Origin: a virus
Taxonomy: Duplodnaviria > Heunggongvirae > Uroviricota > Caudoviricetes
Length of the DNA stretch: 44,824 nucleotides
IMG/VR virus record: IMGVR_UViG_647533158_000002
Reading direction: 5' to 3' (one strand)
Shown here: positions 5,164 through 44,824 of the stretch, piece by piece
Layout of the letters: each line of letters begins with the position of its first letter
How positions within the stretch are numbered: the stretch's first letter is position 1
Notes under the pieces: generated by a model
Told to the model about the DNA's origin: nothing
Seen by the model: the letters and a program-made list of their open reading frames with translations, nothing else
Databases searched by the model: none
Translations under genes and position numbers: made by a program

Positions 5164-5167
5164 AAGT

Positions 5168-6633: not shown

Positions 6634-6728
6634 TGTTCATCCTTTTAAGTTAGACAAAAGGAAAAATATAATGCAATGTTATCGATGCTTTTTTGAAGCC
6701 AAAGTTAACTTGTTGAATTTATGTCGAA

Positions 6729-7418: not shown

Positions 7419-7522
7419 AGTCCAAATGTACAACCAAGGTTTTATTTCATCAAACGAAAATGGTTGTTGACTAAAAACAACCATGGTTTTAATCTTGATT
7501 CAAATTAACCACGGAGGTTGTT
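7419..7522. promoter_or_regulatory. OR-like operator/promoter region (divergent pRM / pR)
   Basis: Between divergent cI and cro; inverted repeats AACC-aa-GGTT (7432-7441), TGGTTGTT-n7-AACAACCA (7461-7484), CAACCATGGTT (7479-7489); plus-strand -35 TTGACT at 7467-7472 with candidate -10 TAATCT 17 nt downstream; cro RBS GGAGG. Confidence 0.5.
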
Positions 7523-10442: not shown

Positions 10443-10775
10443 ATGAACCCTTATATTTATCTTGGTGGTGCAATACTTGCAGAGGTCATTGGTACAACCT
10501 TAATGAAGTTTTCAGAAGGTTTTACACGGTTATGGCCATCTGTTGGTACAATTATTTGTTATTGTGCATCATTCTGGTTATTAGCTCAGACGCTGGCTTA
10601 TATTCCTACAGGGATTGCTTATGCTATCTGGTCAGGAGTCGGTATTGTCCTGATTAGCTTACTGTCATGGGGATTTTTCGGCCAACGGCTGGACCTGCCA
10701 GCCATTATAGGCATGATGTTGATTTGTGCCGGTGTGTTGGTTATTAATTTATTGTCACGAAGCACACCACATTAA
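10443..10775 (+). CDS. emrE: small multidrug resistance efflux transporter EmrE
   Basis: 110 aa from ATG 10443; MNPYIYLGGAILAEVIGTTLMKFSEGFTRLWPSVGTIICYCASFWLLAQ... recognised as EmrE; four hydrophobic helices. Confidence 0.9.
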   Translation: MNPYIYLGGAILAEVIGTTLMKFSEGFTRLWPSVGTIICYCASFWLLAQTLAYIPTGIAYAIWSGVGIVLISLLSWGFFGQRLDLPAIIGMMLICAGVLVINLLSRSTPH

Positions 10776-16655: not shown

Positions 16656-17738
16656 TTAGAACTGGTAAACCATACCTACAGCAACGATATCATCGGTAGC
16701 AACGCCAGATGCTTTCGTGAAATCGCTCTTATCAATCAGGTTGATTTTGTAATCAACAAAAGTGGACATATTTTTGTTGAAGTAATAGGTTGCACCTACA
16801 TCAATATATTCAACCAGGTCCTGATCACCCCACGCACCCAAGTCTTTTCCTTTAGATTGCAGGTAAGCAACGGACGGACGCAGACCGAAGTCGAACTGAT
16901 ATTGTGCAACTACTTCGAAGTTTTGTGCTTTGTTGGCAATATGGTTATTACCAAAAACAGTCATGTTCTGGGTTTCAGAATAGGTGGTAGCCAGATAGAT
17001 GTTGTTCGCATCATATTTCAGACCAGCTGCCCATACTTCAGCATTTTGACCAGATGCATTCAGGCTGTTGTTACCGTAGATAACCTGATTATTAGTGCGG
17101 TCAGATTTAGCATAGGTTGCACCTACACCGAATCCTTCATACTCATAAGTAGTGGAGAAACCGAAACCATCACCATTAGCTTCAGTTACGTCAGTGCGGT
17201 CATTTTTACCCTGATACTGAGCAGCAAAGTTCAGACCATCAACCAGACCAAAGAAGTCGTTGTTACGATAAGTTGCAACACCAGTGGTGCGACCAGTCAT
17301 GAACACATCTGTTTGGGTCCAGGTATCGCCACCGAATTCTGGCAGAACGTCAGTCCACGCACCGATGTCATATGCTACACCGTAGTTACGGCCGTAATCG
17401 ATTGAGCCGTAGTCCCCGAATTTCAGGCCTGCAAATGCAAGACGGGTTTTGTCTTTGGAGGAGCCTTGAGATTCAGCGCGGTTGCCTTTGAATTCATATT
17501 CCCACTGACCGAAACCAGTCAGTTGATCGTTGATTTGGGTTTCACCTTTGAAGCCAAGACGGGCATAAGTAGTATCACCATCATCTGCATCATTAGAGGA
17601 GAAGTAGTGCTTGGCATTAACTTTCCCATATAGATCCAGCTTGTTACTGTCTTTATTATAAATTTCAGCTGCCTGAGCAGACATCGCCATCAGTACTGAT
17701 GCAGCTACAGCAGAAATTGCCACTGTTAATTTTTTCAT
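16656..17738 (-). CDS. nmpC: outer-membrane general porin NmpC (OmpC/OmpF family)
   Basis: Signal peptide [23 protein letters not shown], beta-barrel porin sequence ending in YQF; start set at ATG 17738 rather than upstream alternative start. Confidence 0.9.
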
Positions 17739-19528: not shown

Positions 19529-19822
19529 TTATTGTGAGCAATACACACGCGCTTCCAGCGGAGTATAAATGCCTAAAGTAATAAAACCGAGAAATCCATT
19601 TACGAATGTTTGCTGGGTTTCTGTTTTAACAACATTTTCTGCGCCGCCACAAATTTTGGCTGCATCAACAGTTTTCTCCTGTCCAATTCCCGAAACGAAG
19701 AAATGATGGGTGATGGTTTCCTTTGGTGTTACTGCTGTCGGTTTGTTTCCAACAGTAAACGTCTGTTGAGCACATCCTGTAATAAGCATTGCCAGAGCGG
19801 CAGAAAACAACATTTTTTTCAT
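19529..19822 (-). CDS. borD: Bor lipoprotein (serum-resistance-associated)
   Basis: MKKMLFSAALAMLITGCAQQTFTV... lipobox ITGC; recognised as lambda Bor-like; start at internal ATG 19822. Confidence 0.9.
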   Translation of the reverse strand: MKKMLFSAALAMLITGCAQQTFTVGNKPTAVTPKETITHHFFVSGIGQEKTVDAAKICGGAENVVKTETQQTFVNGFLGFITLGIYTPLEARVYCSQ

Positions 19823-20559: not shown

Positions 20560-20766
20560 GCGATCCGACAGGTTACGGGGCGGCGACCTCGCGGGTTTTC
20601 GCTATTTATGAAAATTTTCCGGTTTAAGGTGTTTCCGTTCTTCTTCGTCGTAACTTAATGTTTTTATTTAAAATACCCCCTGAAAAGAAAGGAAACGACA
20701 GGTGCTGAAAACGGGCTTTTTGGCCTTTGTCGTTTCCTTTCTCTGTTTTTGTCCGTGGAATGAACA
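20560..20766 (+). other. cos site: cosN cohesive end GGGCGGCGACCT (20578-20589) followed by cosB up to the nu1 start
   Basis: Sequence ...CGATCCGACAGGTTACG|GGGCGGCGACCTCGCGGGTTTTCGCTATTTATGAAAATTTTCCGG... reads as the lambda right-end / left-end junction. Confidence 0.9.
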
Positions 20767-21286
20767 ATGGAAGTCAACAAAAAGCAGCTGGCTGACATTT
20801 TCGGTGCGAGTATCCGTACCATTCAGAACTGGCAGGAACAGGGAATGCCCGTTCTGCGAGGCGGTGGCAAGGGTAATGAGGTGCTTTATGACTCTGCCGC
20901 CGTTATAAAATGGTATGCCGAAAGGGATGCTGAAATTGAGAACGAAAAGCTGCGCCGGGAAGTTGAAGAACTGCGGCAGGCCAGCGAGACAGATCTCCAG
21001 CCAGGGACTATTGAGTACGAACGCCATCGACTTACGCGTGCGCAGGCCGACGCACAGGAACTGAAGAATGCCAGAGACTCCGCTGAAGTGGTGGAAACCG
21101 CATTCTGTACTTTCGTGCTGTCGCGGATCGCAGGTGAAATTGCCAGTATTCTCGACGGGATCCCCCTGTCGGTGCAGCGGCGTTTTCCGGAACTGGAAAA
21201 CCGACATGTTGATTTCCTGAAACGGGATATCATCAAAGCCATGAACAAAGCAGCCGCGCTGGATGAACTGATACCGGGGTTGCTGA

Positions 21287-21312
<26 letters not shown>
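20767..21312 (+). CDS. nu1: terminase small subunit Nu1
   Basis: 181 aa; MEVNKKQLADIFGASIRTIQNWQEQGMPVLRGGGKGNEVLYD... recognised as lambda Nu1. Confidence 0.95.
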
Positions 21313-24993
<3,681 letters not shown>

Positions 24994-25013
<20 letters not shown>

Positions 25014-26313
25014 TCTCCCGCATATTGCCAGCATGGCTTTTAATGAGCCGCTGATGCTTGAACCCGCCTATGCGCGGGTTTTCTTTTGTGCGCTTGCAGG
25101 CCAGCTTGGGATCAGCCGCCTGACGGATGCAGTATCCGGCGACAGCCTGACTGCCGGAGAGGCACCCGCGGCGCTGGCGTTATCCGGTGATGATGACGGA
25201 CCACGACAGGCCCGCAGTTATCAGGTCATGAACGGCATCGCCGTGCTGCCGGTGTCCGGTACGCTGGTCAGTCGGACGCGGGCGCTGCAGCCGTATTCGG
25301 GAATGACCGGTTACAACGGCATTATCGCCCGTCTGCAACAGGCTGCCAGTGACCCGATGGTGGACGGCATTCTGCTCGATATGGATACGCCAGGCGGAAT
25401 GGTGGCGGGGGCATTTGACTGCGCTGACATCATCGCCCGTGTGCGTGACATAAAGCCGGTATGGGCGCTGGCCAATGACATGAACTGCAGCGCAGGTCAG
25501 CTGCTTGCCAGTGCCGCCTCCCGGCGTCTGGTCACGCAGACCGCCCGGACAGGCTCCATCGGCGTCATGATGGCTCACAGTAATTACGGCGCTGCGCTGG
25601 AGAAACAGGGCGTGGAAATCACGCTGATTTACAGCGGCAGCCATAAGGTGGATGGCAACCCCTACAGCCATCTACCGGATGATGTCCGGGAAACACTGCA
25701 GTCCCGGATGGATGCAACCCGCCGGATGTTTGCACAGAAGGTGTCGGCATATACCGGCCTGTCTGTGCAGGCTGTGCTGGATACCGAGGCTGCAGTGTAC
25801 AGCGGTCAGGAGGCCATTGATGCCGGACTGGCTGATGAACTTGTTAACAGTACCGATGCGATCACCGTCATGCGTGATGCACTGGATGCACGTAAATCCC
25901 GTCTCTCAGGAGGGCGAATGACCAAAGAGACTCAATCAACAACTGTTTCAGCCACTGCTTCGCAGGCTGACGTTACTGGCGTGGTGCAAGCGACGGAGGG
26001 CGAGAACGCCAGCGCGGCGCAGCCGGACGTAAACGCGCAGATCACCGCAGCGGTTGCGGCAGAAAACAGTCGCATTATGGGGATCCTCAACTGTGAGGAG
26101 GCTCACGGACGTGAAGAACAGGCACGCGTGCTGGCCGAAACCCCCGGTATGACCGTGGAAACGGCCCGCCGCATTCTGGCAGCTGCACCACAGAGTGCAC
26201 AGGCGCGCAGTGACACTGCGCTGGATCGTCTGATGCAGGGGGCACCGGCACCGCTGGCTGCAGGTAACCCGGCATCTGATGCCGTTAACGATTTGCTGAA
26301 CACACCAGTGTAA
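24994..26313 (+). CDS. C: head maturation protease / scaffold C (GTG start)
   Basis: GTG at 24994 preceded by GAGGAGGAGAAGA; VTAELRNLPHIASMAFNEPLMLEP... matches lambda gpC N-terminus; ClpP-like fold region. Confidence 0.85.
25918..26313 (+). CDS. nu3: scaffolding protein Nu3 (in-frame C-terminal product nested in C)
   Basis: Internal ATG 25918 (MTKETQSTTVSATASQ...) preceded by GGAGGG; lambda produces Nu3 from the same frame. Confidence 0.6.
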   Translation: MTKETQSTTVSATASQADVTGVVQATEGENASAAQPDVNAQITAAVAAENSRIMGILNCEEAHGREEQARVLAETPGMTVETARRILAAAPQSAQARSDTALDRLMQGAPAPLAAGNPASDAVNDLLNTPV

Positions 26314-26322
26314 GGGATGTTT

Positions 26323-26655
26323 ATGACGAGCAAAGAAACCTTTACCCATTACCAACCGCTGGGCAACAGTGACCCGGCACATACGGCAACCGCGCCCGGC
26401 GGATTGAGTGCGAAAGCGCCTGCAATGACCCCGCTGATGCTGGATACCTCCACCCGTAAGCTGGTTGCGTGGGATGGCACCACCGACGGTGCTGCCGTTG
26501 GCATTCTGGCGGTTGATGCTGACCAGACCAGCACCACGCTGACGTACTACAAGTCCGGCACGTTCCGTTATGAGGATGTGCTCTGGCCGGAGGCTGCCAG
26601 CGACGAGACGAAAAAACGGACCGCGTTTGCCGGAACGGCAATCAGCATCGTTTAA
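26323..26655 (+). CDS. D: head decoration protein D
   Basis: 110 aa [27 protein letters not shown]... recognised as lambda gpD. Confidence 0.9.
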
Positions 26656-26676
26656 CCTTACCCTTCATCACTAAAG

Positions 26677-26697
26677 GCCGCCTGTGCGGCTTTTTTT
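26677..26697 (+). terminator. hairpin + T-run between D and E (attenuator/terminator-like)
   Basis: GCCGCCTGTGCGGC followed by TTTTTTT. Confidence 0.5.
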
Positions 26698-26710
26698 ACG
26701 GGATTTTTTT

Positions 26711-27736
26711 ATGTCGATGTACACAACCGCCCAGCTGCTGGCGGCAAATGAGAAGAAATTTAAGTTTGATCCGCTGTTTCTGCGTCTCTTTTTCCGTGAG
26801 AGCTATCCCTTCACCACGGAGAAAGTCTATCTCTCACAAATTCCGGGACTGGTAAACATGGCGCTGTACGTTTCGCCGATTGTTTCCGGTGAGGTTATCC
26901 GCTCCCGTGGCGGCTCCACCTCTGAATTTACACCGGGATATGTCAAACCCAAGCATGAGGTGAATCCGCAGATGACCCTGCGTCGCCTGCCGGATGAAGA
27001 TCCACAGAATCTGGCGGACCCGGCTTACCGCCGCCGTCGCATCATCCTGCAGAACATGCGAGACGAAGAGCTGGCCATTGCTCAGGTCGAAGAGATGCAG
27101 GCAGTTTCTGCCGTGCTTAAGGGCAAATACACCATGACCGGTGAAGCCTTCGATCCGGTTGAAGTGGATATGGGCCGCAGTGTGGCGAACAACATCACGC
27201 AGTCCGGCGGTACGGAGTGGAGCAAGCGTGACAAGTCCACGTATGACCCGACCGACGATATCGAAGCCTACGCGCTGAACGCCAGCGGTGTGGTGAATAT
27301 CATCGTGTTTGATCCGAAAGGCTGGGCGCTGTTCCGTTCCTTCAAAGCCGTCAAGGAGAAGCTGGATACCCGTCGCGGCTCTAATTCCGAGCTGGAGACA
27401 GCGGTAAAAGACCTGGGCGAAGCGGTGTCCTATAAGGGGATGTATGGCGATACGGCGATCGTCGTGTATTCCGGACAGTATGTGGAAAACGACGTCAAAA
27501 AGAACTTCCTTCCGGACAACACGATGGTGCTGGGGAACACTCAGGCACGCGGTCTGCGCACCTATGGCTGCATTCAGGATGCGGACGCACAGCGCGAAGG
27601 TATTAACGCCTCTGCCCGCTACCCGAAAAACTGGGTGACCACCGGCGATCCGGCGCGTGAGTTCACCATGATTCAGTCAGCACCGCTGATGCTGCTGGCT
27701 GACCCTGATGCGTTCGTGTCCGTACAACTGGCGTAA
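26711..27736 (+). CDS. E: major capsid protein E
   Basis: 341 aa from ATG 26711 (MSMYTTAQLLAANEKKFKFDPLFLRLFF...) recognised as lambda gpE. Confidence 0.95.
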   Translation: MSMYTTAQLLAANEKKFKFDPLFLRLFFRESYPFTTEKVYLSQIPGLVNMALYVSPIVSGEVIRSRGGSTSEFTPGYVKPKHEVNPQMTLRRLPDEDPQNLADPAYRRRRIILQNMRDEELAIAQVEEMQAVSAVLKGKYTMTGEAFDPVEVDMGRSVANNITQSGGTEWSKRDKSTYDPTDDIEAYALNASGVVNIIVFDPKGWALFRSFKAVKEKLDTRRGSNSELETAVKDLGEAVSYKGMYGDTAIVVYSGQYVENDVKKNFLPDNTMVLGNTQARGLRTYGCIQDADAQREGINASARYPKNWVTTGDPAREFTMIQSAPLMLLADPDAFVSVQLA

Positions 27737-27738
27737 TC

Positions 27739-27760
27739 ATGGCCCTTCGGGGCCATTTTC
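27739..27760 (+). terminator. stable hairpin after E (UUCG-type loop)
   Basis: ATGGCCC-TTCG-GGGCCAT then TTTTC. Confidence 0.4.
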
Positions 27761-27777
27761 TCTCTGTGGAGGAGTCC

Positions 27778-28173
27778 ATGACGAAAGATGAACTGATTGC
27801 CCGTCTTCAGGTGCTGGGTGAGCAACTGAACCGTGATGTCAGCCTGACGGGGACGAAAGAAGAACTGGCACTCCGTGTGGCAGAGCTGGAAGAGGAGCTT
27901 GATGACACGGATGACGCTGCCGGTCAGGACACATCTGTCAGCCCGGAAAATGCGCTGACCGGGCATGAAAATGAGGTGGTATCAGCGCAGCCGGATACCG
28001 TGATTGATACGGCTGCTCTGGTCACGGTCGTGGCACTGGTGACGCTGCATACTGATGCACTTCACGCCACGCGGGATGAGCCTGTGGCATTTGTGCTGCC
28101 GGGAACGGCGTTTCGTGTCTCTGCCGGTGTGGCAGCCGAAATGACAGAACATGGCCTGGCCAGAATGCAATAA
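27778..28173 (+). CDS. FI: DNA packaging protein FI
   Basis: 131 aa from ATG 27778 (MTKDELIARLQVLGEQLNRDVSLTGTKEELALRVAELEEEL...). Confidence 0.85.
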   Translation: MTKDELIARLQVLGEQLNRDVSLTGTKEELALRVAELEEELDDTDDAAGQDTSVSPENALTGHENEVVSAQPDTVIDTAALVTVVALVTLHTDALHATRDEPVAFVLPGTAFRVSAGVAAEMTEHGLARMQ

Positions 28174-28184
28174 CGGGAGGCGCT

Positions 28185-28538
28185 GTGGCTGATTCCGATA
28201 ACCTGTTCGATGCTGCCATTGCCCGCGCCGATGAAACGATACGCGGGTACATGGGAACGTCAGCCACCATGACATCCGGTGAGCTGTCCGGTGCTGTGAT
28301 ACGTGGTGTTTTTGATGACCCTGAAAATATCAGCTATGCCGGACAGGGGGTGCGCGTTGAAGGCTCCAGCCCGTCCCTGTTTGTCCGGACTGATGATGTG
28401 CGGCAGCTGCGGCGTGGAGACACACTGACCATCGGCGAGGAAAACTTCTGGGTGGACCGGATTTCGCCGGATGATGGCGGAAGCTGTCATCTCTGGCTTG
28501 GGCGGGGCGTACCGCCTGCCGTTAACCGTCGCCGCTGA
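28185..28538 (+). CDS. FII: head completion protein FII
   Basis: 117 aa MADSDNLFDAAIARADETIRGYMG... recognised as lambda gpFII. Confidence 0.9.
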   Translation: MADSDNLFDAAIARADETIRGYMGTSATMTSGELSGAVIRGVFDDPENISYAGQGVRVEGSSPSLFVRTDDVRQLRRGDTLTIGEENFWVDRISPDDGGSCHLWLGRGVPPAVNRRR

Positions 28539-28549
28539 AAGGGGGATGT

Positions 28550-29128
28550 ATGGCCATAAAAGGTCTTGAGCAGGCCGTTGAAAACCTCAGCCGTATCAGC
28601 AGAACGGCGGTGCCCGGTGCCGCCGCAATGGCCATTAACCGCGTTGCTTCATCCGCGATATCGCAGTCGGCGTCACAGGTTGCCCGTGAGACAAAGGTAC
28701 GCCGGAAACTGGTAAAGGAAAGGGCCAGGCTGAAAAGGGCCACGGTCAAAAATCCGCAGGCCAGAATCAAGGTTAACCGGGGGGATTTGCCCGTAATAAA
28801 GCTGGGTAACGCGCGGATTGTCCTGTCCCGACGCAGGCGTCGTAAAAAGGGGCAGCGTTCAGCCCTGAAAGGTGGCGGCAGCGTGCTTGTGGTGGGAAAC
28901 CGTCGTATTCCCGGCGCGTTTATTCAGCAACTGAAAAATGGCCGGTGGCATGTCATGCAGCGTGTGGCCGGGAAAAACCGTTACCCCATTGATGTGGTGA
29001 AAATCCCGATGGCGGTGCCGCTGACCACGGCGTTTAAACAAAATATTGAGCGGATACGGCGTGAACGTCTTCCGAAAGAGCTGGGCTATGCGCTGCAGCA
29101 TCAACTGAGGATGGTAATAAAGCGATGA
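28550..29128 (+). CDS. Z: tail completion protein Z
   Basis: 192 aa recognised as lambda gpZ. Confidence 0.9.
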   Translation: MAIKGLEQAVENLSRISRTAVPGAAAMAINRVASSAISQSASQVARETKVRRKLVKERARLKRATVKNPQARIKVNRGDLPVIKLGNARIVLSRRRRRKKGQRSALKGGGSVLVVGNRRIPGAFIQQLKNGRWHVMQRVAGKNRYPIDVVKIPMAVPLTTAFKQNIERIRRERLPKELGYALQHQLRMVIKR

Positions 29129-29520
29129 AACATACTGAACTCCGTGCAGCCGTACTGGATGCACTGGAGAAGCATGACACCGGGGCGACGTTTTTTGATG
29201 GTCGCCCCGCTGTTTTTGATGAGGCGGATTTTCCGGCAGTTGCCGTTTATCTCACCGGCGCTGAATACACGGGCGAAGAGCTGGACAGCGATACCTGGCA
29301 GGCGGAGCTGCATATCGAAGTTTTCCTGCCTGCTCAGGTGCCGGATTCAGAGCTGGATGCGTGGATGGAGTCCCGGATTTATCCGGTGATGAGCGATATC
29401 CCGGCACTGTCAGATTTGATCACCAGTATGGTGGCCAGCGGCTATGACTACCGGCGCGACGATGATGCGGGCCTGTGGAGTTCAGCCGATCTGACTTATG
29501 TCATTACCTATGAAATGTGA
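29125..29520 (+). CDS. U: tail terminator protein U
   Basis: 131 aa [33 protein letters not shown]... recognised as lambda gpU. Confidence 0.9.
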
Positions 29521-29527
29521 GGACGCT

Positions 29528-30268
29528 ATGCCTGTACCAAATCCTACAATGCCGGTGAAAGGTGCCGGGACCACCCTGTGGGTTTATAAGGGGAGCGGTG
29601 ACCCTTATGCGAATCCGCTTTCAGACGTTGACTGGTCGCGTCTGGCAAAAGTTAAAGACCTGACGCCCGGCGAACTGACCGCTGAGTCCTATGACGACAG
29701 CTATCTCGATGATGAAGATGCAGACTGGACTGCGACCGGGCAGGGGCAGAAATCTGCCGGAGATACCAGCTTCACGCTGGCGTGGATGCCCGGAGAGCAG
29801 GGGCAGCAGGCGCTGCTGGCGTGGTTTAATGAAGGCGATACCCGTGCCTATAAAATCCGCTTCCCGAACGGCACGGTCGATGTGTTCCGTGGCTGGGTCA
29901 GCAGTATCGGTAAGGCGGTGACGGCGAAGGAAGTGATCACCCGCACGGTGAAAGTCACCAATGTGGGACGTCCGTCGATGGCAGAAGATCGCAGCACGGT
30001 AACAGCGGCAACCGGCATGACCGTGACGCCTGCCAGCACCTCGGTGGTGAAAGGGCAGAGCACCACGCTGACCGTGGCCTTCCAGCCGGAGGGCGTAACC
30101 GACAAGAGCTTTCGTGCGGTGTCTGCGGATAAAACAAAAGCCACCGTGTCGGTCAGTGGTATGACCATCACCGTGAAAGGCGTTGCTGCAGGTAAGGTCA
30201 ACATTCCGGTTGTATCCGGTAATGGTGAACTTGCTGCGGTTGCAGAAATCACTGTCACCGACAGTTAA
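29528..30268 (+). CDS. V: major tail tube protein V (with C-terminal Ig-like domain)
   Basis: 246 aa from ATG 29528 ([22 protein letters not shown]...). Confidence 0.9.
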
Positions 30269-30283
30269 TCCGGAGAGTCAGCG

Positions 30284-30706
30284 ATGTTCCTGAAAACCGA
30301 ATCATTTGAACATAACGGCGTGACCGTCACGCTTTCTGAACTGTCAGCCCTGCAGCGTATTGAGCATCTCGCCCTGATGAAACGGCAGGCAGAACAGGCG
30401 GAGTCAGACAGCAACCGGAAGTTTACTGTGGAAGACGCCATCAGAACCGGTGCTTTTGTGGTGGCTATGTCCCTGTGGCATAACCATCCGCAGAAGACAA
30501 AGCAGCCTTCCATGAATGAAGCCGTTAAACAGATTGAGCAGGAAGTGCTTACCACCTGGCCCACAGAGGCAATTTCTCATGCTGAAAACGTGGTGTACCG
30601 GCTGTCCGGTATGTATGAGTTTGTGGTGAATGATGCCCCTGAACAGGCAGAGGACGCCGGGCCTGCAGAGCCTGTTTCTGCGGGAAAGTGTTCGACGGTG
30701 AGCTGA
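30284..30706 (+). CDS. G: tail assembly chaperone G
   Basis: 140 aa MFLKTESFEHNGVTVTLSELSALQRIEHLALMKRQ...; contains slippery site near 3' end. Confidence 0.9.
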   Translation: MFLKTESFEHNGVTVTLSELSALQRIEHLALMKRQAEQAESDSNRKFTVEDAIRTGAFVVAMSLWHNHPQKTKQPSMNEAVKQIEQEVLTTWPTEAISHAENVVYRLSGMYEFVVNDAPEQAEDAGPAEPVSAGKCSTVS

Positions 30707-31122
30707 GCTTTGCCCTGAAACTGGCGCGCGAGATGGGGCGACCCGACTGGCGTGCCATGCTTGCCGGGATGTCATCCACGGAGTATGCCGACTGGCACCG
30801 CTTTTACAGTACCCATTATTTTCATGATGTTCTGCTGGATATGCACTTTTCCGGGCTGACGTACACCGTGCTCAGCCTGTTTTTCAGCGATCCGGATATG
30901 CATCCGCTGGATTTCAGTCTGCTGAACCGGCGTGAGGCTGACGAAGAGCCTGAAGATGATGTGCTGATGCAGAAAGCGGCAGGGCTTGCCGGAGGCGTCC
31001 GCTTTGGCCCGGACGTGAATGAAGTTATCCCCGTTTCCCCGGATGAGGCGGACATGACGGAGGATGACGTAATGCTGATGACAGTATCAGAAGGGATCGC
31101 AGGAGGAGTCCGGTATGGCTGA
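30688..31122 (+). CDS. T: T portion of tail assembly chaperone G-T (expressed by -1 programmed frameshift from G)
   Basis: Slippery heptamer G_GGA_AAG at 30682-30688 in the G frame; the -1 frame continues VFDGELSFALKLAREMGRPDWRAMLAG... to 31122 with no independent RBS/ATG. Confidence 0.8.
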   Translation: MFDGELSFALKLAREMGRPDWRAMLAGMSSTEYADWHRFYSTHYFHDVLLDMHFSGLTYTVLSLFFSDPDMHPLDFSLLNRREADEEPEDDVLMQKAAGLAGGVRFGPDVNEVIPVSPDEADMTEDDVMLMTVSEGIAGGVRYG

Positions 31123-33676
31123 ACCGGTAGGCGATCTGGTCGTTGATTTAAGTCTGGATGCGGCCAGATTTGACGAGCAGATGGCCAGAGTCAGGCGTCA
31201 TTTTTCCAGTACGGAAAGTGATGCGAAAAAAACAGCGGCAGTCGTTGAACAGTCGCTGAGCCGACAGGCGCTGGCTGCACAGAAAGCGGGGATTTCCGTC
31301 GGGCAGTATAAAGCTGCCATGCGTATGCTGCCTGCGCAGTTCACCGACGTGGCCACGCAGCTTGCAGGCGGGCAAAGTCCGTGGCTGATCCTGCTGCAAC
31401 AGGGTGGTCAGGTGAAGGACTCCTTCGGCGGGATGATCCCCATGTTCAGGGGGCTTGCCGGTGCGATCACCCTGCCGATGGTCGGGGCCACCTCGCTGGC
31501 GGTGGCGACCGGTGCGCTGGCGTATGCCTGGTATCAGGGCAACTCAACCCTGTCCGATTTCAACAAAACGCTGGTCCTTTCCGGCAATCAGTCGGGTCTG
31601 ACGGCAGATCGTATGCTGGTCCTGTCCAGAGCCGGGCAGGCGGCAGGGCTGACGTTTAACCAGACCAGCGAGTCACTCAGCGCACTGGTTAAGGCGGGAG
31701 TAAGCGGTGAGGCTCAGATTGCATCCATCAGCCAGAGTGTGGCGCGTTTCTCCTCTGCATCCGGCGTGGAGGTGGACAAGGTCGCTGAAGCCTTCGGGAA
31801 GCTGACCACAGACCCGACGTCAGGGCTGACAGCGATGGCACGCCAGTTCCATAACGTGACGGCGGAGCAGATTGCGTATGTTGCTCAGTTGCAGCGTTCC
31901 GGCGATGAAGCCGGGGCATTGCAGGCGGCGAACGAGGCCGCGACGAAAGGGTTTGATGACCAGACCCGCCGCCTGAAAGAGAACATGGGTACGCTGGAGA
32001 CCTGGGCAGACAGGACAGCGCGGGCATTCAAATCCATGTGGGATGCGGTGCTGGATATTGGTCGTCCTGATACCGCTCAGGAGATGCTGATTAAGGCAGA
32101 GGCTGCGTTTAAGAAAGCGGACGACATCTGGAGTCTGCGCAAGGATGATTATTTTGTTAACGATGAAGCGCGGGCGCGTTACTGGGATGATCGTGAAAAG
32201 GCCCGTCTTGCGCTTGAAGCCGCGAGAAAGAAGGCTGAACAGCAGAGTCAACAGGACAAAAATGCGCAGCAGCAGAGCGATACTGAAGCGTCACGGCTGA
32301 AATATACCGAAGAGGCGCAGAAAGCTTACGAACGGCTGCAGACGCCGCTGGAGAAATATACCGCCCGTCAGGAAGAACTGAACAAGGCACTGAAGGACGG
32401 GAAAATTCTGCAGGCAGATTACAACACGCTGATGGCGGCGGCGAAAAAGGACTATGAAGCGACGCTGAAAAAGCCGAAACAGTCCGGCGTGAAGGTGTCT
32501 GCGGGCGATCGTCAGGAAGACAGTGCTCATGCTGCCCTGCTGACGCTTCAGGCTGAACTCCGGACGCTGGAGAAGCATGCCGGAGCAAATGAGAAAATCA
32601 GCCAGCAGCGCCGGGATTTGTGGAAGGCGGAGAGTCAGTTCGCGGTACTGGAGGAGGCGGCGCAACGTCGCCAGCTGTCTGCACAGGAGAAATCCCTGCT
32701 GGCGCATAAAGATGAGACGCTGGAGTACAAACTCCAGCTGGCTGCACTTGGCGACAAGGTTACGTATCAGGAGCGCCTGAACGCGCTGGCGCAGCAGGCG
32801 GATAAATTCGCACAGCAGCAACGGGCAAAACGGGCCGCCATTGATGCGAAAAGCCGGGGGCTGACTGACCGGCAGGCAGAACGGGAAGCCACGGAACAGC
32901 GCCTGAAGGAACAGTATGGCGATAATCCGCTGGCGCTGAATAACGTCATGTCAGAGCAGAAAAAGACCTGGGCGGCTGAAGACCAGCTTCGCGGGAGCTG
33001 GATGGCAGGCCTGAAGTCCGGCTGGAGTGAGTGGGAAGAGAGCGCCACGGACAGTATGTCGCAGGTAAAAAGTGCAGCCACGCAGACCTTTGATGGTATT
33101 GCACAGAATATGGCGGCGATGCTGACCGGCAGTGAGCAGAACTGGCGCAGCTTCACCCGTTCCGTGCTGTCCATGATGACAGAAATTCTGCTTAAGCAGG
33201 CAATGGTGGGGATTGTCGGGAGTATCGGCAGCGCTATTGGCGGGGCTGTTGGTGGCGGCGCATCCGCGTCAGGCGGTACAGCCATTCAGGCCGCTGCGGC
33301 GAAATTCCATTTTGCAACCGGAGGATTTACGGGAACCGGCGGCAAATATGAGCCAGCGGGGATTGTTCACCGTGGTGAATTTGTCTTCACAAAGGAGGCA
33401 ACCAGCCGGATTGGCGTGGGGAATCTCTACCGGCTGATGCGCGGCTATGCCACCGGTGGTTATGTCGGTACACCGGGCAGTCTGGCTGACAGCCGGTCGC
33501 AGGCGTCTGGGACGTTTGAGCAGAATAACCATGTGGTGATTAACAACGACGGCACGAACGGGCAGATAGGTCCGGCTGCTCTGAAGGCGGTGTATGACAT
33601 GGCCCGCAAGGGTGCCCGTGATGAAATTCAGACACAGATGCGTGATGGTGGACTGTTCTCCGGAGGTGGACGATGA
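31115..33676 (+). CDS. H: tail tape-measure protein H
   Basis: 853 aa, coiled-coil/Ala-rich, recognised as lambda gpH. Confidence 0.95.
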   Translation: MAEPVGDLVVDLSLDAARFDEQMARVRRHFSSTESDAKKTAAVVEQSLSRQALAAQKAGISVGQYKAAMRMLPAQFTDVATQLAGGQSPWLILLQQGGQVKDSFGGMIPMFRGLAGAITLPMVGATSLAVATGALAYAWYQGNSTLSDFNKTLVLSGNQSGLTADRMLVLSRAGQAAGLTFNQTSESLSALVKAGVSGEAQIASISQSVARFSSASGVEVDKVAEAFGKLTTDPTSGLTAMARQFHNVTAEQIAYVAQLQRSGDEAGALQAANEAATKGFDDQTRRLKENMGTLETWADRTARAFKSMWDAVLDIGRPDTAQEMLIKAEAAFKKADDIWSLRKDDYFVNDEARARYWDDREKARLALEAARKKAEQQSQQDKNAQQQSDTEASRLKYTEEAQKAYERLQTPLEKYTARQEELNKALKDGKILQADYNTLMAAAKKDYEATLKKPKQSGVKVSAGDRQEDSAHAALLTLQAELRTLEKHAGANEKISQQRRDLWKAESQFAVLEEAAQRRQLSAQEKSLLAHKDETLEYKLQLAALGDKVTYQERLNALAQQADKFAQQQRAKRAAIDAKSRGLTDRQAEREATEQRLKEQYGDNPLALNNVMSEQKKTWAAEDQLRGSWMAGLKSGWSEWEESATDSMSQVKSAATQTFDGIAQNMAAMLTGSEQNWRSFTRSVLSMMTEILLKQAMVGIVGSIGSAIGGAVGGGASASGGTAIQAAAAKFHFATGGFTGTGGKYEPAGIVHRGEFVFTKEATSRIGVGNLYRLMRGYATGGYVGTPGSLADSRSQASGTFEQNNHVVINNDGTNGQIGPAALKAVYDMARKGARDEIQTQMRDGGLFSGGGR

Positions 33677-34002
33677 AAACCTTCCGCTGGAAAGTGAAAC
33701 CCGGTATGGATGTGGCTTCGGCCCCTTCTGTAAGAAAGGTGCGCTTTGGTGATGGCTATTCCCAGCGAGCGCCTGCCGGGCTGAATGCCAACCTGAAAAC
33801 GTACAGCGTGACGCTTTCTGTCCCCCGTGAGGAGGCCACGGTACTGGAGTCGTTTCTGGAAGAGCACGGGGGCTGGAAAGCCTTTCTGTGGACGCCGCCT
33901 TATGAGTGGCGGCAGATAAAGGTGACCTGCGCAAAATGGTCGTCGCGGGTCAGTATGCTGCGTGTTGAGTTCAGCGCAGAGTTTGAACAGGTGGTGAACT
34001 GA
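33673..34002 (+). CDS. M: tail tip protein M
   Basis: 109 aa MKTFRWKVKPGMDVASAPSVRKVRFGDGYSQRAPAGLNAN... Confidence 0.9.
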   Translation: MKTFRWKVKPGMDVASAPSVRKVRFGDGYSQRAPAGLNANLKTYSVTLSVPREEATVLESFLEEHGGWKAFLWTPPYEWRQIKVTCAKWSSRVSMLRVEFSAEFEQVVN

Positions 34003-34700
34003 TGCAGGATATCCGGCAGGAAACACTGAATGAATGCACCCGTGCGGAGCAGTCGGCCAGCGTGGTGCTCTGGGAAATCGACCTGACAGAGGTCGGTGGA
34101 GAACGTTATTTTTTCTGTAATGAGCAGAACGAAAAAGGTGTGCCGGTCACCTGGCAGGGGCGACAGTATCAGCCGTATCCCATTCAGGGGAGTGGTTTTG
34201 AACTGAATGGCAAAGGCACCAGTACGCGCCCCACGCTGACGGTTTCTAACCTGTACGGTATGGTCACCGGGATGGCGGAAGATCTGCAGAGTCTGGTCGG
34301 CGGAACGGTGGTCCGGCGTAAGGTTTACGCCCGTTTTCTGGATGCGGTGAACTTCGTCAACGGAAACAGTGACGCCGATCCGGAGCAGGAGGTGATCAGC
34401 CGCTGGCGCATCGAGCAGTGCAGCGAACTGAGCGCGGTGAGTGCCTCCTTTGTACTGTCCACGCCGACGGAAACGGATGGCGCTGTTTTTCCGGGACGTA
34501 TCATGCTGGCCAACACCTGCACTTGGACCTATCGCGGTGATGAGTGCGGTTATCACGGTCCGGCAGTCGCGGATGAATATGACCAGCCGACGTCCGATAT
34601 CACGAAGGATAAATGCAGCAAATGCCTGAGCGGCTGTAAGTTTCGCAATAACGTCGGCAACTTTGGCGGCTTCCTTTCCATTAACAAACTTTCGCAGTAA
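34002..34700 (+). CDS. L: tail tip protein L
   Basis: 232 aa with C-terminal Cys cluster (CSKCLSGCKF). Confidence 0.9.
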   Translation: MQDIRQETLNECTRAEQSASVVLWEIDLTEVGGERYFFCNEQNEKGVPVTWQGRQYQPYPIQGSGFELNGKGTSTRPTLTVSNLYGMVTGMAEDLQSLVGGTVVRRKVYARFLDAVNFVNGNSDADPEQEVISRWRIEQCSELSAVSASFVLSTPTETDGAVFPGRIMLANTCTWTYRGDECGYHGPAVADEYDQPTSDITKDKCSKCLSGCKFRNNVGNFGGFLSINKLSQ

Positions 34701-34704
34701 TCCC

Positions 34705-35348
34705 ATGACAGAGACAGAATCAGCGATTCTGGCGCACGCCCGGCGATGTGCGCCAGCGGAGTCGTGCGGCTTCGTGGTGAGAGCGCCGGAGGGGGAAAGA
34801 TATTTTCCCTGCGTGAATATTTCCGGTGAGCCGGAGGATTATTTCCGGATGGCTCCGGAGGACTGGCTGCAGGCAGAGATGCAGGGTGAGATTGTGGCAC
34901 TGGTCCACAGTCATCCCGGTGGTCTGCCCTGGCTGAGTGAGGCTGACCGGCGGCTGCAGGTGCAGAGTGATTTGCCGTGGTGGCTGGTCTGCCGGGGGGC
35001 GATTCACAAGTTCCGCTGTGTGCCGCATCTCACCGGGCGGCGCTTTGAGCACGGGGTGACGGACTGTTACACGCTGTTCCGGGATGCTTATCATCTGGCG
35101 GGGATTGAGATGCCGGATTTTCATCGCGGGGATGACTGGTGGCGTCACGGTCAGAATCTCTATCTGGATAATCTGGAGGCCACAGGGCTGTATCAGGTGC
35201 CGTTGTCATCAGCACAACCGGGCGATGTGCTGCTGTGCTGTTTTGGTTCATCGGTGCCGAATCATGCCGCCATTTACTGTGGTGATGGCGAGCTGCTGCA
35301 CCATATTCCTGAACAACTGAGCAAACGAGAGAGGTATACCGACAAATG
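34705..35348 (+). CDS. K: tail tip assembly protein K (3' end lost in N-run)
   Basis: ATG 34705 (MTETESAILAHARRCAPAESCGFVV...); HSHPGG JAMM/MPN-like motif then NlpC/P60-like region; ORF runs into gap at 35349. Confidence 0.8.
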
Positions 35349-35621
35349 NNNNNNNNNNNNNNNNNNNNNNNNNNNNNNNNNNNNNNNNNNNNNNNNNNNN
35401 NNNNNNNNNNNNNNNNNNNNNNNNNNNNNNNNNNNNNNNNNNNNNNNNNNNNNNNNNNNNNNNNNNNNNNNNNNNNNNNNNNNNNNNNNNNNNNNNNNNN
35501 NNNNNNNNNNNNNNNNNNNNNNNNNNNNNNNNNNNNNNNNNNNNNNNNNNNNNNNNNNNNNNNNNNNNNNNNNNNNNNNNNNNNNNNNNNNNNNNNNNNN
35601 NNNNNNNNNNNNNNNNNNNNN
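35349..35621. other. run of 273 N (unresolved or masked sequence) spanning the K/I junction
   Basis: Literal n characters in the sequence. Confidence 1.
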
Positions 35622-36213
35622 CGCCGCATCGACCTTCGTGTGAAAACGGGGGCGTGAAGCCATCCGCGCACTGGCCACACAGCTCCCGGCGTTTCGTCAG
35701 AAACTGAGCGACGGCTGGTATCAGGTACGGATTGCCGGGCAGGATGTCAGCACGTCCGGATTAACGGCGCAGTTACATGAGACTCTGCCTGATGGCGCTG
35801 TGATTCATATTGTTCCCAGAGTCGCCGGGGCCAAGTCAGGTGGTGTATTCCAGATTGTCCTGGGAGCAGCCGCCATTGCCGGATCATTCTTTACCGCCGG
35901 AGCCACCCTTACAGCATGGGGGGCAGCCATTGGGGCCGGTGGTATGACCGGCATCCTGTTTTCTCTCGGTGCCAGTATGGTGCTCGGTGGTGTGGCGCAG
36001 ATGCTGGCACCGAAAGCCCGGACGCCCACAGCGACCAGCACGGATAACGGTAAGCAGAACACCTATTTTTCATCACTGGATAACATGGTTGCCCAGGGCA
36101 ATGTTCTGCCTGTTCTGTACGGTGAAATGCGCGTGGGGTCACGCGTGGTTTCTCAGGAGATCAGCACGGCAGACGAAGGGGATGGTGGTCAGGTTGTGGT
36201 GATTGGTCGCTGA
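35622..36213 (+). CDS. I: tail tip assembly protein I (5' end in N-run; apparent +1 frame disruption at about 35655)
   Basis: Frame 0 reads RRIDLRVKTGA then stop (35655-35657); frame 1 continues EAIRALATQLPAFRQKLSDGWYQVRIAGQDV... to 36213; the two pieces look like one contiguous lambda gpI sequence separated by a single extra base. Confidence 0.65.
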
Positions 36214-36273
36214 TGCAAAATGTTTTATGTGAAACCGCCTGCGGGAGGTTTTGTCGTTTATGGAGCGTGAGGA

Positions 36274-39898
<3,625 letters not shown>

Positions 39899-39915
39899 AT
39901 TTTATAACCCATAAC

Positions 39916-39941
39916 GGGCGTCAGAAATGACGCCTTTTTTA
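39916..39941 (+). terminator. rho-independent terminator after J
   Basis: GGGCGTCA-gaaa-TGACGCC followed by TTTTTTATT. Confidence 0.7.
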
Positions 39942-39964
39942 TTGCAGAAAAGCGAGAGGTAATT

Positions 39965-40564
39965 ATGCGTAAACTTTATGCCGCCATTTTGTCCGCAGCC
40001 ATTTGTCTGGCCGTATCCGGTGCGCCTGCATGGGCGTCTGAACATCAGTCCACGCTGAGCGCGGGGTATCTTCATGCCTCGACGAACGTTCCCGGCAGCG
40101 ATGATCTGAACGGGATTAACGTGAAATACCGTTATGAGTTTACGGACACACTGGGGATGGTGACGTCATTCAGCTATGCAGGAGACAAGAATCGCCAGCT
40201 GACCCATTACAGCGATACCCGCTGGCATGAAGATTCCGTGCGTAACCGCTGGTTCAGCGTGATGGCGGGGCCGTCTGTGCGCGTGAATGAATGGTTCAGC
40301 GCGTATGCGATGGCGGGTGTGGCTTACAGCCGTGTGTCGACTTTCTCCGGGGATTATCTTCGCGTAACTGACAACAAGGGGAAAACGCACGATGTGCTGA
40401 CCGGAAGTGATGACGGTCGCCACAGCAACACGTCTCTGGCGTGGGGAGCTGGCGTGCAGTTTAACCCGACCGAATCCGTGGCCATTGATATTGCTTATGA
40501 AGGTTCCGGCAGTGGCGACTGGCGCACTGACGGTTTCATCGTGGGTGTCGGTTATAAGTTCTGA
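39965..40564 (+). CDS. lom: Lom outer-membrane protein (Ail/Lom family)
   Basis: 199 aa with signal peptide, beta-barrel pattern ending in GYKF; GAGAGG RBS. Confidence 0.9.
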   Translation: MRKLYAAILSAAICLAVSGAPAWASEHQSTLSAGYLHASTNVPGSDDLNGINVKYRYEFTDTLGMVTSFSYAGDKNRQLTHYSDTRWHEDSVRNRWFSVMAGPSVRVNEWFSAYAMAGVAYSRVSTFSGDYLRVTDNKGKTHDVLTGSDDGRHSNTSLAWGAGVQFNPTESVAIDIAYEGSGSGDWRTDGFIVGVGYKF

Positions 40565-40590
40565 TTAGCCAGGTAACACAGTGTTATGAC

Positions 40591-40617
40591 AGCCCGCCGG
40601 TTCAGGCGGGCTTTTTT
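40591..40617 (+). terminator. rho-independent terminator after lom
   Basis: AGCCCGCC-ggttca-GGCGGGCT followed by TTTTTTG. Confidence 0.75.
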
Positions 40618-40628
40618 GTGGGGTGAAT

Positions 40629-43600
40629 ATGGCAGTAAAGATTTCAGGTGTACTGAAAGACGGCACAGGAAAACCGGTACAGAACTGCACAATCCAGCTG
40701 AAAGCAAAACGTAACAGCACCACGGTGGTGGTGAACACGCTGGCCTCAGAAAATCCGGATGAAGCCGGGCGTTACAGCATGGACGTTGAGTACGGTCAGT
40801 ACAGCGTTATTCTGTTGGTGGAAGGATTCCCGCCGTCACATGCCGGGACCATCACCGTGTATGAAGATTCTCAACCCGGTACGCTGAATGATTTTCTCGG
40901 TGCCATGACGGAGGATGATGCCCGTCCGGAGGCACTGCGCCGTTTTGAACTGATGGTGGAAGAGGTGGCGCGTAACGCGTCCGCGGTGGCACAGAACACG
41001 GCAGCCGCGAAGAAGTCAGCCAGTGATGCCAGCACATCAGCCCGTGAGGCGGCAACCCATGCGGCTGATGCTGCGGACTCAGCACGCGCAGCCAGCACGT
41101 CAGCCGGACAGGCCGCGTCGTCGGCTCAGTCAGCGTCTTCCAGCGCAGGAACGGCATCAACAAAGGCCACTGAAGCATCAAAAAGTGCTGCCGCTGCAGA
41201 GTCCTCAAAAAGCGCGGCGGCCACCAGTGCCGGTGCGGCGAAAACGTCAGAAACGAATGCTTCAGCGTCACAACAATCAGCAGCCACATCTGCATCCACC
41301 GCGACCACGAAGGCATCAGAAGCTGCGACCTCGGCCCGGGATGCGGCGGCCTCAAAAGAGGCGGCAAAATCATCAGAAACGAGCGCAGCCTCGAGCGCCA
41401 GTAGTGCAGCTTCCTCGGCAACGGCGGCAGGAAATTCCGCGAAGGCGGCAAAAACGTCCGAGACGAACGCCAGGTCTTCTGAAACGGCAGCGGGACAGAG
41501 CGCCTCAGCTGCGGCAGGCTCAAAAACAGCGGCTGCGTCGTCTGCCAGTGCAGCGTCAACAAGTGCCGGGCAGGCCTCANNNNNNNNNNNNNNNNNNNNN
41601 NNNNNNNNNNNNNNNNNNNNNNNNNNNNNNNNNNNNNNNNNNNNNNNNNNNNNNNNNNNNNNNNNNNNNNNNNNNNNNNNNNNNNNNNNNNNNNNNNNNN
41701 NNNNNNNNNNNNNNNNNNNNNNNNNNNNNNNNNNNNNNNNNNNNNNNNNNNNNNNNNNNNNNNNNNNNNNNNNNNNNNNNNNNNNNNNNNNNNNNNNNNN
41801 NNNNNNNNNNNNNNNNNNNNAGGCCTCAGCCAGTGCCACCGCCGCCGGAAAATCGGCAGAAAGCGCTGCATTGTCCGCTTCAACAGCCACAACGAAGGCT
41901 GGCGAAGCCGCTGAACAGGCCAGCGCAGCAGCGAGGTCTGCATCCGCAGCGAAGACATCCGAAACGAACGCGAAAGCGTCGGAAACCAGCGCAGAATCCT
42001 CAAAAACGGCAGCGGCATCGTCTGCCAGTTCGGCGGCGTCATCGGCATCATCTGCGTCTGCTTCAAAAGATGAGGCGACCAGACAGGCGTCAGCAGCGAA
42101 GGGCAGCGCCACGACGGCATCCACGAAGGCGACAGAGGCTGCTGGCAGTGCGACAGCGGCAGCACAGAGCAAAAGTACGGCGGAATCCGCGGCAACGCGC
42201 GCCGAGACAGCAGCTAAACGGGCAGAGGATATTGCATCCGCCGTGGCGCTTGAGGATGCAAGTACGACGAAAAAGGGGATAGTACAGCTCAGCAGTGCGA
42301 CCAACAGTACGTCTGAAACGCTGGCGGCAACGCCAAAGTCAGTAAAATCAGCCTATGACAATGCAGAGAAACGTCTGCAGAAAGACCAGAACGGCGCTGA
42401 TATACCCGATAAGGGACGCTTCCTGAACAACATTAACGCGGTCAGTAAAACAGACTTTGCTGATAAGCGTGGTATGCGTTATGTGCGGGTTAACGCTCCT
42501 GCAGGTGCAACATCTGGAAAATATTACCCTGTTGTTGTTATGCGTTCTGCTGGCTCAGTAAGCGAACTGGCATCAAGGGTCATTATCACCACGGCAACGC
42601 GAACCGCAGGCGATCCGATGAATAACTGCGAGTTTAACGGATTTGTTATGCCTGGTGGCTGGACTGACAGGGGGCGTTATGCTTATGGAATGTTCTGGCA
42701 ATATCAAAACAATGAACGAGCCATCCACTCAATAATGATGAGTAATAAGGGCGATGATTTGCGCTCTGTGTTCTATGTTGATGGCGCTGCTTTCCCTGTT
42801 TTTGCGTTTATCGAAGATGGCCTGTCAATATCCGCACCTGGTGCTGATCTCGTTGTTAATGATACGACCTATAAGTTTGGGACAACAATTCCAGCGACTG
42901 AATGTATCGCGGCGGACGTTATCCTTGATTTTAAGAGTGGGCGTGGTTTTTATGAGTCCCATTCGTTAATCGTTAACGATAACTTGTCGTGCAAAAAACT
43001 TTTTGCCACAGACGAAATTGTAGCGCGTGGTGGTAATCAGATTCGAATGATAGGTGGGGAGTATGGGGCATTATGGCGTAATGATGGCGCTAAAACTTAC
43101 CTGCTGCTTACCAATCAAGGTGATGTTTATGGTGGCTGGAATACATTAAGACCGTTTGCTATTGATAACGCAACCGGCGAACTGGTTATTGGAACCAAAC
43201 TGTCTGCAAGTCTGAACGGTAACGCATTGACAGCAACAAAGCTGCAAACGCCAAGACTGGTTTCTGGGGTTGAGTTTGATGGTTCAAAAGATATTACTTT
43301 AACCGCCGCGCATGTGGCTGCTTTTGCCAGAAGGGCAACGGATACATATGCCGATGCGGATGGTGGCGTTCCCTGGAATGCCGAATCAGGCGCTTACAAT
43401 GTCACCCGCTCTGGCGACAGCTATATTCTGGTTAACTTCTATACCGGAGTCGGAAGTTGCCGGACCCTGCAGATGAAGGCGCATTACAGAAATGGAGGTC
43501 TGTTCTACCGTTCCTCAAGAGATGGCTATGGTTTTGAGGAAGGCTGGGCAGAAGTTTATACCTCGAAAAATCTTCCACCAGAAAGCTACCCAGTTGGCGC

Positions 43601-44240
43601 ACCAATTCCGTGGCCATCAGATACCGTTCCGTCTGGTTATGCCCTGATGCAGGGGCAGACTTTTGACAAATCTGCATACCCGAAACTTGCAGTTGCTTAT
43701 CCGTCAGGCGTGATCCCTGATATGCGTGGCTGGACGATTAAGGGCAAGCCCGCCAGTGGTCGTGCCGTATTGTCTCAGGAACAGGACGGCATTAAATCGC
43801 ACACCCACAGCGCCAGCGCATCCAGTACGGATTTGGGTACGAAAACCACATCGTCGTTTGATTACGGCACTAAATCTACGAATAACACCGGGGCACATAC
43901 ACACAGTGTGAGCGGCTCTACAAACTCGGCTGGAGCACACACACACTCACTAGCCAACGTGAACACGGCTAGTGCTAACTCCGGTGCTGGTAGTGCATCA
44001 ACAAGATTGTCTGTTGTGCATAATCAAAACTATGCAACATCATCTGCTGGCGCACATACCCACTCACTGTCCGGCACTGCTGCAAGCGCAGGTGCACACG
44101 CACATACTGTCGGTATTGGTGCTCATACGCACTCGGTTGCGATTGGCTCACATGGACACACCATCACCGTTAACGCTGCTGGTAACGCGGAAAACACCGT
44201 CAAAAACATCGCATTTAACTATATTGTGAGGCTTGCATAA
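40629..44240 (+). CDS. stf: side tail fibre protein Stf (interrupted by N-run 41580-41820)
   Basis: N-terminus [32 protein letters not shown]... matches lambda Stf; long Ala/Ser/Thr-rich repeat region; C-terminal His-rich GAHTHS repeats ending [11 protein letters not shown]; frame is continuous across the N-run. Confidence 0.9.
41580..41820. other. run of 241 N inside the stf repeat region
   Basis: Literal n characters; both flanks carry the same CAGGCCTCA motif. Confidence 1.
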
Positions 44241-44824
44241 TGGCATTCAGAATGAGTGAACAACCACGGACCATAAAAATTTATAATCTGCTGGCCGGAA
44301 CTAATGAATTTATTGGTGAAGGTGACGCATATATTCCGCCTCATACAGGTCTGCCAGCAAACAGTACCGATATTGCACCGCCAGATATTCCGGCTGGCTT
44401 TGTGGCTGTTTTCAACAGTGATGAGGCATCGTGGCATCTCGTTGAAGACCATCGGGGTAAAACCGTCTATGACGTGGCTTCCGGCGACGCGTTATTTATT
44501 TCTGAACTCGGCTCATTACCGGAAAATGTCACCTGGTTATCCCCGGAAGGGGAGTTTCAGAAGTGGAACGGCACAACCTGGGTGAAAGATGCAGAAGCAG
44601 AAAAACTGTTCCGGATCCGGGAGGCGGAAGAAACAAAAAACAGCCTGATGCAGGTAGCCAGTGAGCATATTGCGCCACTTCAGGATGCTGCAGATCTGGA
44701 AATCGCAACGGAGGGAGAAACCTCGTTGCTGGAAGCCTGGAAAAAGTATCGGGTGTTGCTGAACCGTGTTGATATATCAACTGCACCTGATATTGAGTGG
44801 CCTACGAACCCTGTCAGGGAGTAA
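44240..44824 (+). CDS. tfa: tail fibre assembly protein Tfa
   Basis: 194 aa [44 protein letters not shown]...; ATG overlaps stf stop; stop is the last codon of the window. Confidence 0.9.

Follow-up and report, generated by a model that had tools for sequence, protein, structure and literature searches.

A surplus base splitting tail gene I of a lambda-type prophage is very probably a sequencing or assembly error

The tail gene I of a complete lambda-type prophage is broken in the deposited sequence by a single surplus base, G35654, which very probably came in as an error with draft assembly GCA_000163155.1 (scaffold GG749126.1) and would be missing from the phage DNA itself. In the real prophage gene I is most likely intact, reading ...GGGGGCTGAAGCC... 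as it does in all relatives, and the frame break, although true of the deposited record, is almost certainly not a biological feature. We favour an artefact because of the position of the base at a contig end, the mis-sized scaffold gaps, its uniqueness to the assembly and the precedent of Escherichia coli K-12 BW2952; the contig-end location, the uniqueness and the documented precedent are all established by the comparisons described below. The window, by which we mean the whole stretch of 44,824 nucleotides that was analysed, is 100% identical, N-runs included, to its counterpart in the 548-kb scaffold GG749126.1.

The reading frame of gene I

Translated from position 35622, frame 0 of the window gives RRIDLRVKTGA followed by a TGA, and the +1 frame, ...EAIRALATQLPAFRQ..., is open through to the stop at the end of the gene (Table 1). 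Alignment with lambda (J02459), ev207 and eight sister prophages identifies exactly one surplus base in the window, G35654, lying between C35653 and T35655, so that GGGGGCTGAAG, as it stands in lambda J02459 and in the nearest phage record, ev207 (NC_049949), becomes GGGGGCGTGAAG. The local context is GGGGGC-G-TGAAG, with the surplus G straight after a homopolymer of five Gs and a C. As deposited, the sequence does not encode gpI in a single uninterrupted frame; without G35654 it does, with a continuous reading of 196 codons from 35622 to 36213. The initial annotation described a frame disruption in I beside an N-run, and translation and alignment bear out its frames, its stop and the single surplus base. 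Its suggestion that removal of one base near GCG-T-GAA would give contiguous lambda gpI also proved correct, in that the 196-codon reading obtained by deleting G35654 matches PF06805. A chance test is not applicable here, because the surplus G is a specific difference from all of the relatives.

The repaired reading matches the Pfam profile PF06805 (Lambda_tail_I) with E = 7e-21 and 74.9 bits (cut-off 23.8), and is 96-100% identical at the DNA level to gene I of lambda, ev207 and the sister prophages. The gene order, M-L-K-I-J, was obtained by tblastn with the PhiR34_1 proteins together with the ev207 and lambda annotations, and it places I between K and J. The K product has Prok-JAB (3.4e-14) and NLPC_P60 (5.2e-10) domains by Pfam, and the first 214 codons of K are present with the last ~33 lying in the scaffold gap (tblastn match to residues 1-214 of the 247-aa PhiR34_1 K); the ev207 K gene is 744 nt long. 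In the junction alignment, lambda and ev207 read ...GACAAATG followed directly by GCAGCGACG... at the start of I, and lambda I is annotated from that ATG. The homologue of the gap at 35349-35621 comprises I codons 2-27 and the end of K.

In lambda, gpI residues 135-223 form a trimeric plug in the lumen of the tail tip that holds the tape-measure protein gpH (PMC10721106). The +1-frame part of gene I in the window includes the end of the Lambda_tail_I domain as well as this C-terminal plug region. There is also an internal GTG at 35800 that begins a 137-aa open reading frame corresponding to lambda residues ~87-223, which takes in the structurally resolved plug, and protein look-ups returned no entry on record for this 137-aa product. 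The fragment annotated in the source scaffold is 183 aa long, starts at an ATC (35662), and is recorded on no other contig.

Table 1. Positions of gene I, its neighbours and the prophage cargo genes in the window
Feature	Position	Strand	Basis or remark
SMR-type efflux protein (cargo, moron)	10443-10772		Intact
YbcK-like recombinase (cargo, moron)	11030-12553		Intact
OmpD/NmpC-like porin (cargo, moron)	16659-17738	-	Intact
bor (cargo, moron)	19532-19822	-	Intact
Gene K (tail tip assembly protein; JAB + NlpC/P60)	34705-35348	+	Pfam, tblastn
ATG matching the start codon of the 223-aa lambda I; final 3 bases before the N-run	35346-35348	+	Alignment with lambda and ev207
Scaffold gap, 273 N	35349-35621	.	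78 nt in ev207, lambda and the eight sisters
gpI codons 28-38 (RRIDLRVKTGA) in the original frame, with premature TGA (35655-35657)	35622-35657	+	Translation, alignment
Surplus G, putative sequencing or assembly error	35654	+	Only in the window and deposited BW2952
Rest of gene I (EAIRAL...VVIGR, stop 36211-36213), +1 frame	35656-36213	+	Translation, Pfam
lom (cargo, moron)	39965-40561		Intact

Scaffold gaps and state of the prophage

The window contains three N-runs, at 35349-35621 (273 nt), 37431-37753 (323 nt) and 41580-41820 (241 nt), with the preceding contigs breaking at 35348, 37430 and 41579. The first corresponds to 78 nt in ev207, lambda and the eight sisters, the second to 97 nt in relatives and the third to -8 nt, so that the gaps are oversized by 195, 226 and 249 nt. 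At the third gap the two flanks (41572-41579 and 41821-41828) share the 8 nt AGGCCTCA, and the two contigs abut. Excesses as alike as these point to scaffolding software whose gap sizes are biased, and the window is four contigs joined by guesswork. The first N-run stops 33 nt upstream of the surplus G, which is base 33 of the 1,809-nt contig 35622-37430, and the base therefore lies where confidence in the sequence is low, at a contig end and adjoining a mis-sized gap. This contig belongs to tail-gene sequence of which E. coli genomes often have several prophage copies. The adjacent stretch containing J, lom and stf (37754-41579) is present in a median of three and a maximum of 17 copies per E. 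coli genome, and it is because of this copy number that a short-read assembler broke there.

We also considered whether the N-runs could be exact masks over insertions, with the AGGCCTCA repeat at the third gap resembling a target-site duplication. This was rejected, as the three excess lengths are unequal, the first two gaps stand in place of reference sequence and add nothing to it, and the sisters run unbroken at these points.

An integrase gene on the minus strand (4-1164) marks one end of the prophage and tfa (44240-44812) the other, with the head and tail genes in between. Gene integrity was assessed by tblastn with the 59 annotated PhiR34_1 proteins, 56 of which are shared, and 52 of these 56 genes are complete and read in a single frame. 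The four that are not, namely K, I, J and stf, are precisely those hit by an N-run or by the surplus G. Over the 14.7 kb upstream (20627-35348) the window aligns with ev207 free of gaps and at 99.925% identity, and comparison with the closest relatives reveals no other indels in the late-gene coding sequence. A decaying cryptic prophage might be expected to have other lesions, or to share this one with its relatives. The only further interruptions are the N-runs, however, and the lesion is present in no sister and in no finished genome bar the erroneous BW2952. The prophage is probably complete and inducible, and not cryptic.

Two other features of the prophage are of note. One is a segment at 5165-6730, beside the repressor gene (cI, 6732-7484), that does not align with PhiR34_1 even though its flanks are 98-99% identical, and this is the usual lambdoid mosaicism. 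The other is the lambda G-T -1 frameshift heptamer GGGAAAG, which is conserved at 30682-30688 where gene G ends (30284-30703 for G, with T extending to 31119) and is a genuine, known recoding site of the same tail module.

Occurrence of the surplus base in other genomes

Contigs that encode a tape-measure protein identical to the 853-aa one of the window were taken as sister prophages, and these are present in eight assemblies besides GCA_000163155.1 (GCA_016404485, GCA_026135565, GCA_048934645, GCA_050821505, GCA_029426895, GCA_021079705, GCA_012792735 and GCA_012322125). All eight align with 35622-37430 without a mismatch and with a single gap, at G35654, the other 1,808 bases being identical; gene I is intact in each of them and is called at 190 or 210 aa. 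The lack of the surplus G in eight near-identical sisters is as expected for an artefact that is private to one assembly.

The insertion is similarly rare in larger collections. Among 5,426 finished E. coli genomes, a 64-nt query locates the region at 5,612 places in 3,634 genomes, and a 32-mer that requires the surplus base finds the insertion in just one, that of BW2952. Megablast with the insertion 32-mer found it in none of 50,697 phage records, 113 of which contain the region, and in none of the plasmids in PLSDB; among the phage matches listed, 30 of 30 align 592 query bases to 591. There are no exact matches to insertion-bearing 30- and 33-mers in IMG/VR viral contigs, GTDB genome contigs or JGI metagenome contigs, and the wild-type 29-mer is present in at least 120 of the IMG/VR viral contigs.

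Across the databases searched, the insertion is thus found just once more, in E. coli K-12 BW2952 (NC_012759 / CP001396), where it sits in the malG::lambda-placMu prophage, which has a lambda-proper backbone. Downstream of the site, at 13 nt and ~70 nt, the BW2952 prophage has SNPs of the lambda type that the window lacks, and because the backbones differ the same surplus base is found on two genetic backgrounds. Six sequencing errors of the BW2952 record came to light when a descendant strain was re-sequenced (Maharjan et al. 2013, BMC Genomics 14:441, PMC3708739), all of which were confirmed with Solexa reads and by PCR and Sanger sequencing of BW2952 itself (PMC3708739). One of these, in Table S1, is at position 4168988 ('C -> No C'), 10 bp before BWG_3738, and is given as a sequencing error (PMC3708739). 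Within GGGGG-C-GTGAAG of the BW2952 record, the C is 4168988 and the G that we call surplus is 4168989. Dropping either of the two restores the frame, but the published removal of the C yields GGGGGGTGAAG, with Gly (GGT), whereas lambda has GGGGGCTGAAG, with Ala (GCT), and removal of the G restores the lambda sequence. We regard this discrepancy with the published correction as a reporting detail. The other indel error in BW2952, at 4139083 ('T -> No T'), is also at a homopolymer, with TTT followed by ten Cs. The only other occurrence of the insertion is a demonstrated artefact, and the RefSeq record NC_012759.1 (4168957-4169548; positions 1501-2092 of our extract L003) retains the uncorrected base, with gene I annotated as a 183-aa 'tail assembly protein' starting at a non-canonical ATC.

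There are several other departures among the sister prophages. Three of them have a transposase gene (HTH_Tnp_1 and/or rve domains) immediately upstream of H, namely GCA_016404485 (contig L128, 4358-5843), GCA_029426895 (L133, 1-673) and GCA_021079705 (L134, 1-445). The T gene of L128 is shortened to 83 aa, which is a genuine inactivating lesion in a relative of the window prophage. In GCA_021079705, a ~557-nt segment of J (L134 7145-7701, corresponding to window 38081-38637) is reversed relative to the window, and this is either an inversion or a misassembly. The contig at 37754-41579, which contains the C-terminus of J, lom and the N-terminus of stf, has 17-20 differences from most sisters over the 2,345 nt compared (37754-40098), an identity of 99.1-99.3% for that interval. 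Recombination may have made a mosaic of this host-range region, or the contig may be a consensus drawn from prophage copies that were collapsed. A search for a finished genome of the same strain found none, the closest match to 37754-41579 having 99.6% identity.

Origin of the surplus base and comparison with known systems

The initial annotation left the choice between a pseudogene in a cryptic prophage and an error near a low-quality region. The second of these is supported by the contig end, the gap sizes, the uniqueness of the base and BW2952, and the first is disfavoured, as the other genes are intact and no clonal relative is affected. One mechanism for an error would be a homopolymer-associated miscall. 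In flow-based (454-type) sequencing with the flow order T-A-C-G, strands lagging at the fifth G would have the missing G added in the next G flow, right after the C, to give GGGGG-C-G-T. This mechanism, which we infer for both the window and BW2952, would account for reads of one strand only. The GG-prefixed scaffolds of 2010 are presumably Broad Institute 454/Newbler drafts, and the BW2952 laboratory probably used GS FLX at that time; the BW2952 descendant BW4005 was sequenced with both GS FLX and Solexa. Two observations speak against an error, namely that there is no further indel relative to the closest relatives over more than 20 kb, such that the assembly is not generally error-ridden, and that the published BW2952 correction names the C and not the G as spurious.

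A real, recent and private +1 insertion, with gpI ending after residue 38, no assembly of the tail tip and an otherwise intact prophage left tail-defective, is an unlikely explanation, although it is what the sequence says as deposited. The rest of the assembly is without other indel errors, and prophages do gain inactivating lesions, as illustrated by the sisters on L128, L133 and L134 with a transposase gene next to a truncated T. However, the insertion is in no other assembly, including the eight that are otherwise identical over 1.8 kb, ~5,600 finished-genome copies lack it, and a random mutation at the same spot as its sole other occurrence, a documented sequencing error, would have a chance of about 1 in 10^4-10^5. 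Neither is it a simple product of homopolymer or repeat slippage; it is 33 nt from a contig end that adjoins a mis-sized gap, and no further gene is damaged. If it were real, the plug residues 135-223 would be lost and the prophage would probably make no functional tails. We consider it highly improbable that the G is real and that gpI function is nonetheless kept, either through a low-level +1 slip on GGG_G or through a C-terminal plug domain made from the GTG at 35800; this would imply that the N-terminal Lambda_tail_I domain is dispensable or separable. The surplus G might also have come from a different, truly degraded lambdoid prophage copy elsewhere in the genome, by way of a chimeric or collapsed 1.8-kb contig built from reads of several co-resident lambdoid prophages, and both the multicopy J-lom-stf stretch and the three contig breaks, which are placed as expected of repeats, are in keeping with this. 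But with no finished-genome copy carrying the insertion bar the erroneous BW2952, and with a contig that is otherwise base-perfect against eight sisters and has no trace of mixing, we give this explanation almost no weight.

Programmed +1 frameshifting or recoding at GGG-GCG-UGA, producing full-length gpI and a 38-residue alternative product, is likewise extremely improbable. The site is superficially prfB-like, in that an in-frame UGA has a G-rich, Shine-Dalgarno-like GGGGG just upstream, and a +1 slip of tRNA-Gly on GGG_G would yield ...KTGREAIR... Real recoding sites are conserved, and this arrangement is not, being absent from the 113 phage records, at least 120 viral contigs and ~5,600 genomic copies bar the BW2952 error. 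The tRNA-Ala on the P-site GCG could not pair with CGU, its codon after a +1 shift, the GGG slip site precedes a common GCG codon and not a stop, and the G-run abuts the P-site codon instead of being 3 nt upstream. RNA folding indicates no unusual structure around the site (z = -0.21), and the genuine recoding site of this phage is the GGGAAAG at 30682.

With a sequencing or assembly error as the preferred explanation, the biological import is small, and tail gene I of the prophage should be taken as intact. The value is one of curation. The same spurious base is in two public records, GCA_000163155.1 and NC_012759.1 (the latter despite a published correction), and both contain a falsely split 'tail assembly protein' that would mislead pseudogene counts and judgements of prophage integrity. 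The junction of GGGGGC with T in lambda gene I is marked as a recurrent sequencing-error site.

The closest known parallel is the BW2952 error, which is in the same gene (lambda I), at the same spot and in the same string, GGGGGCGTGAAG, and gives the same 183-aa fragment from an ATC. It differs in having a lambda-proper backbone, the window prophage being ev207/PhiR34-like, and in that the error is proven in BW2952 by Illumina and PCR/Sanger sequencing and is inferred in the window. Relative to lambda gpI and the PF06805 family, gene I of the window as deposited departs in being split by one base and in having its first 27 codons in a scaffold gap. The programmed frameshifts of lambda G-T (-1, GGGAAAG) and prfB (+1, CUU UGA C) are similar in that a full-length product requires a change of frame, and prfB further in its in-frame UGA with an upstream G-run, but the window site lacks a slippery codon, the right spacing and conservation. 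Finally, the stf frameshift that distinguishes lambda PaPa from Ur-lambda is another instance of a frameshift disrupting a lambda tail gene in a reference sequence (PMC10721106), although that one is in stf and not in I, and is real and experimentally verified, with loss of the side tail fibres as its phenotype.
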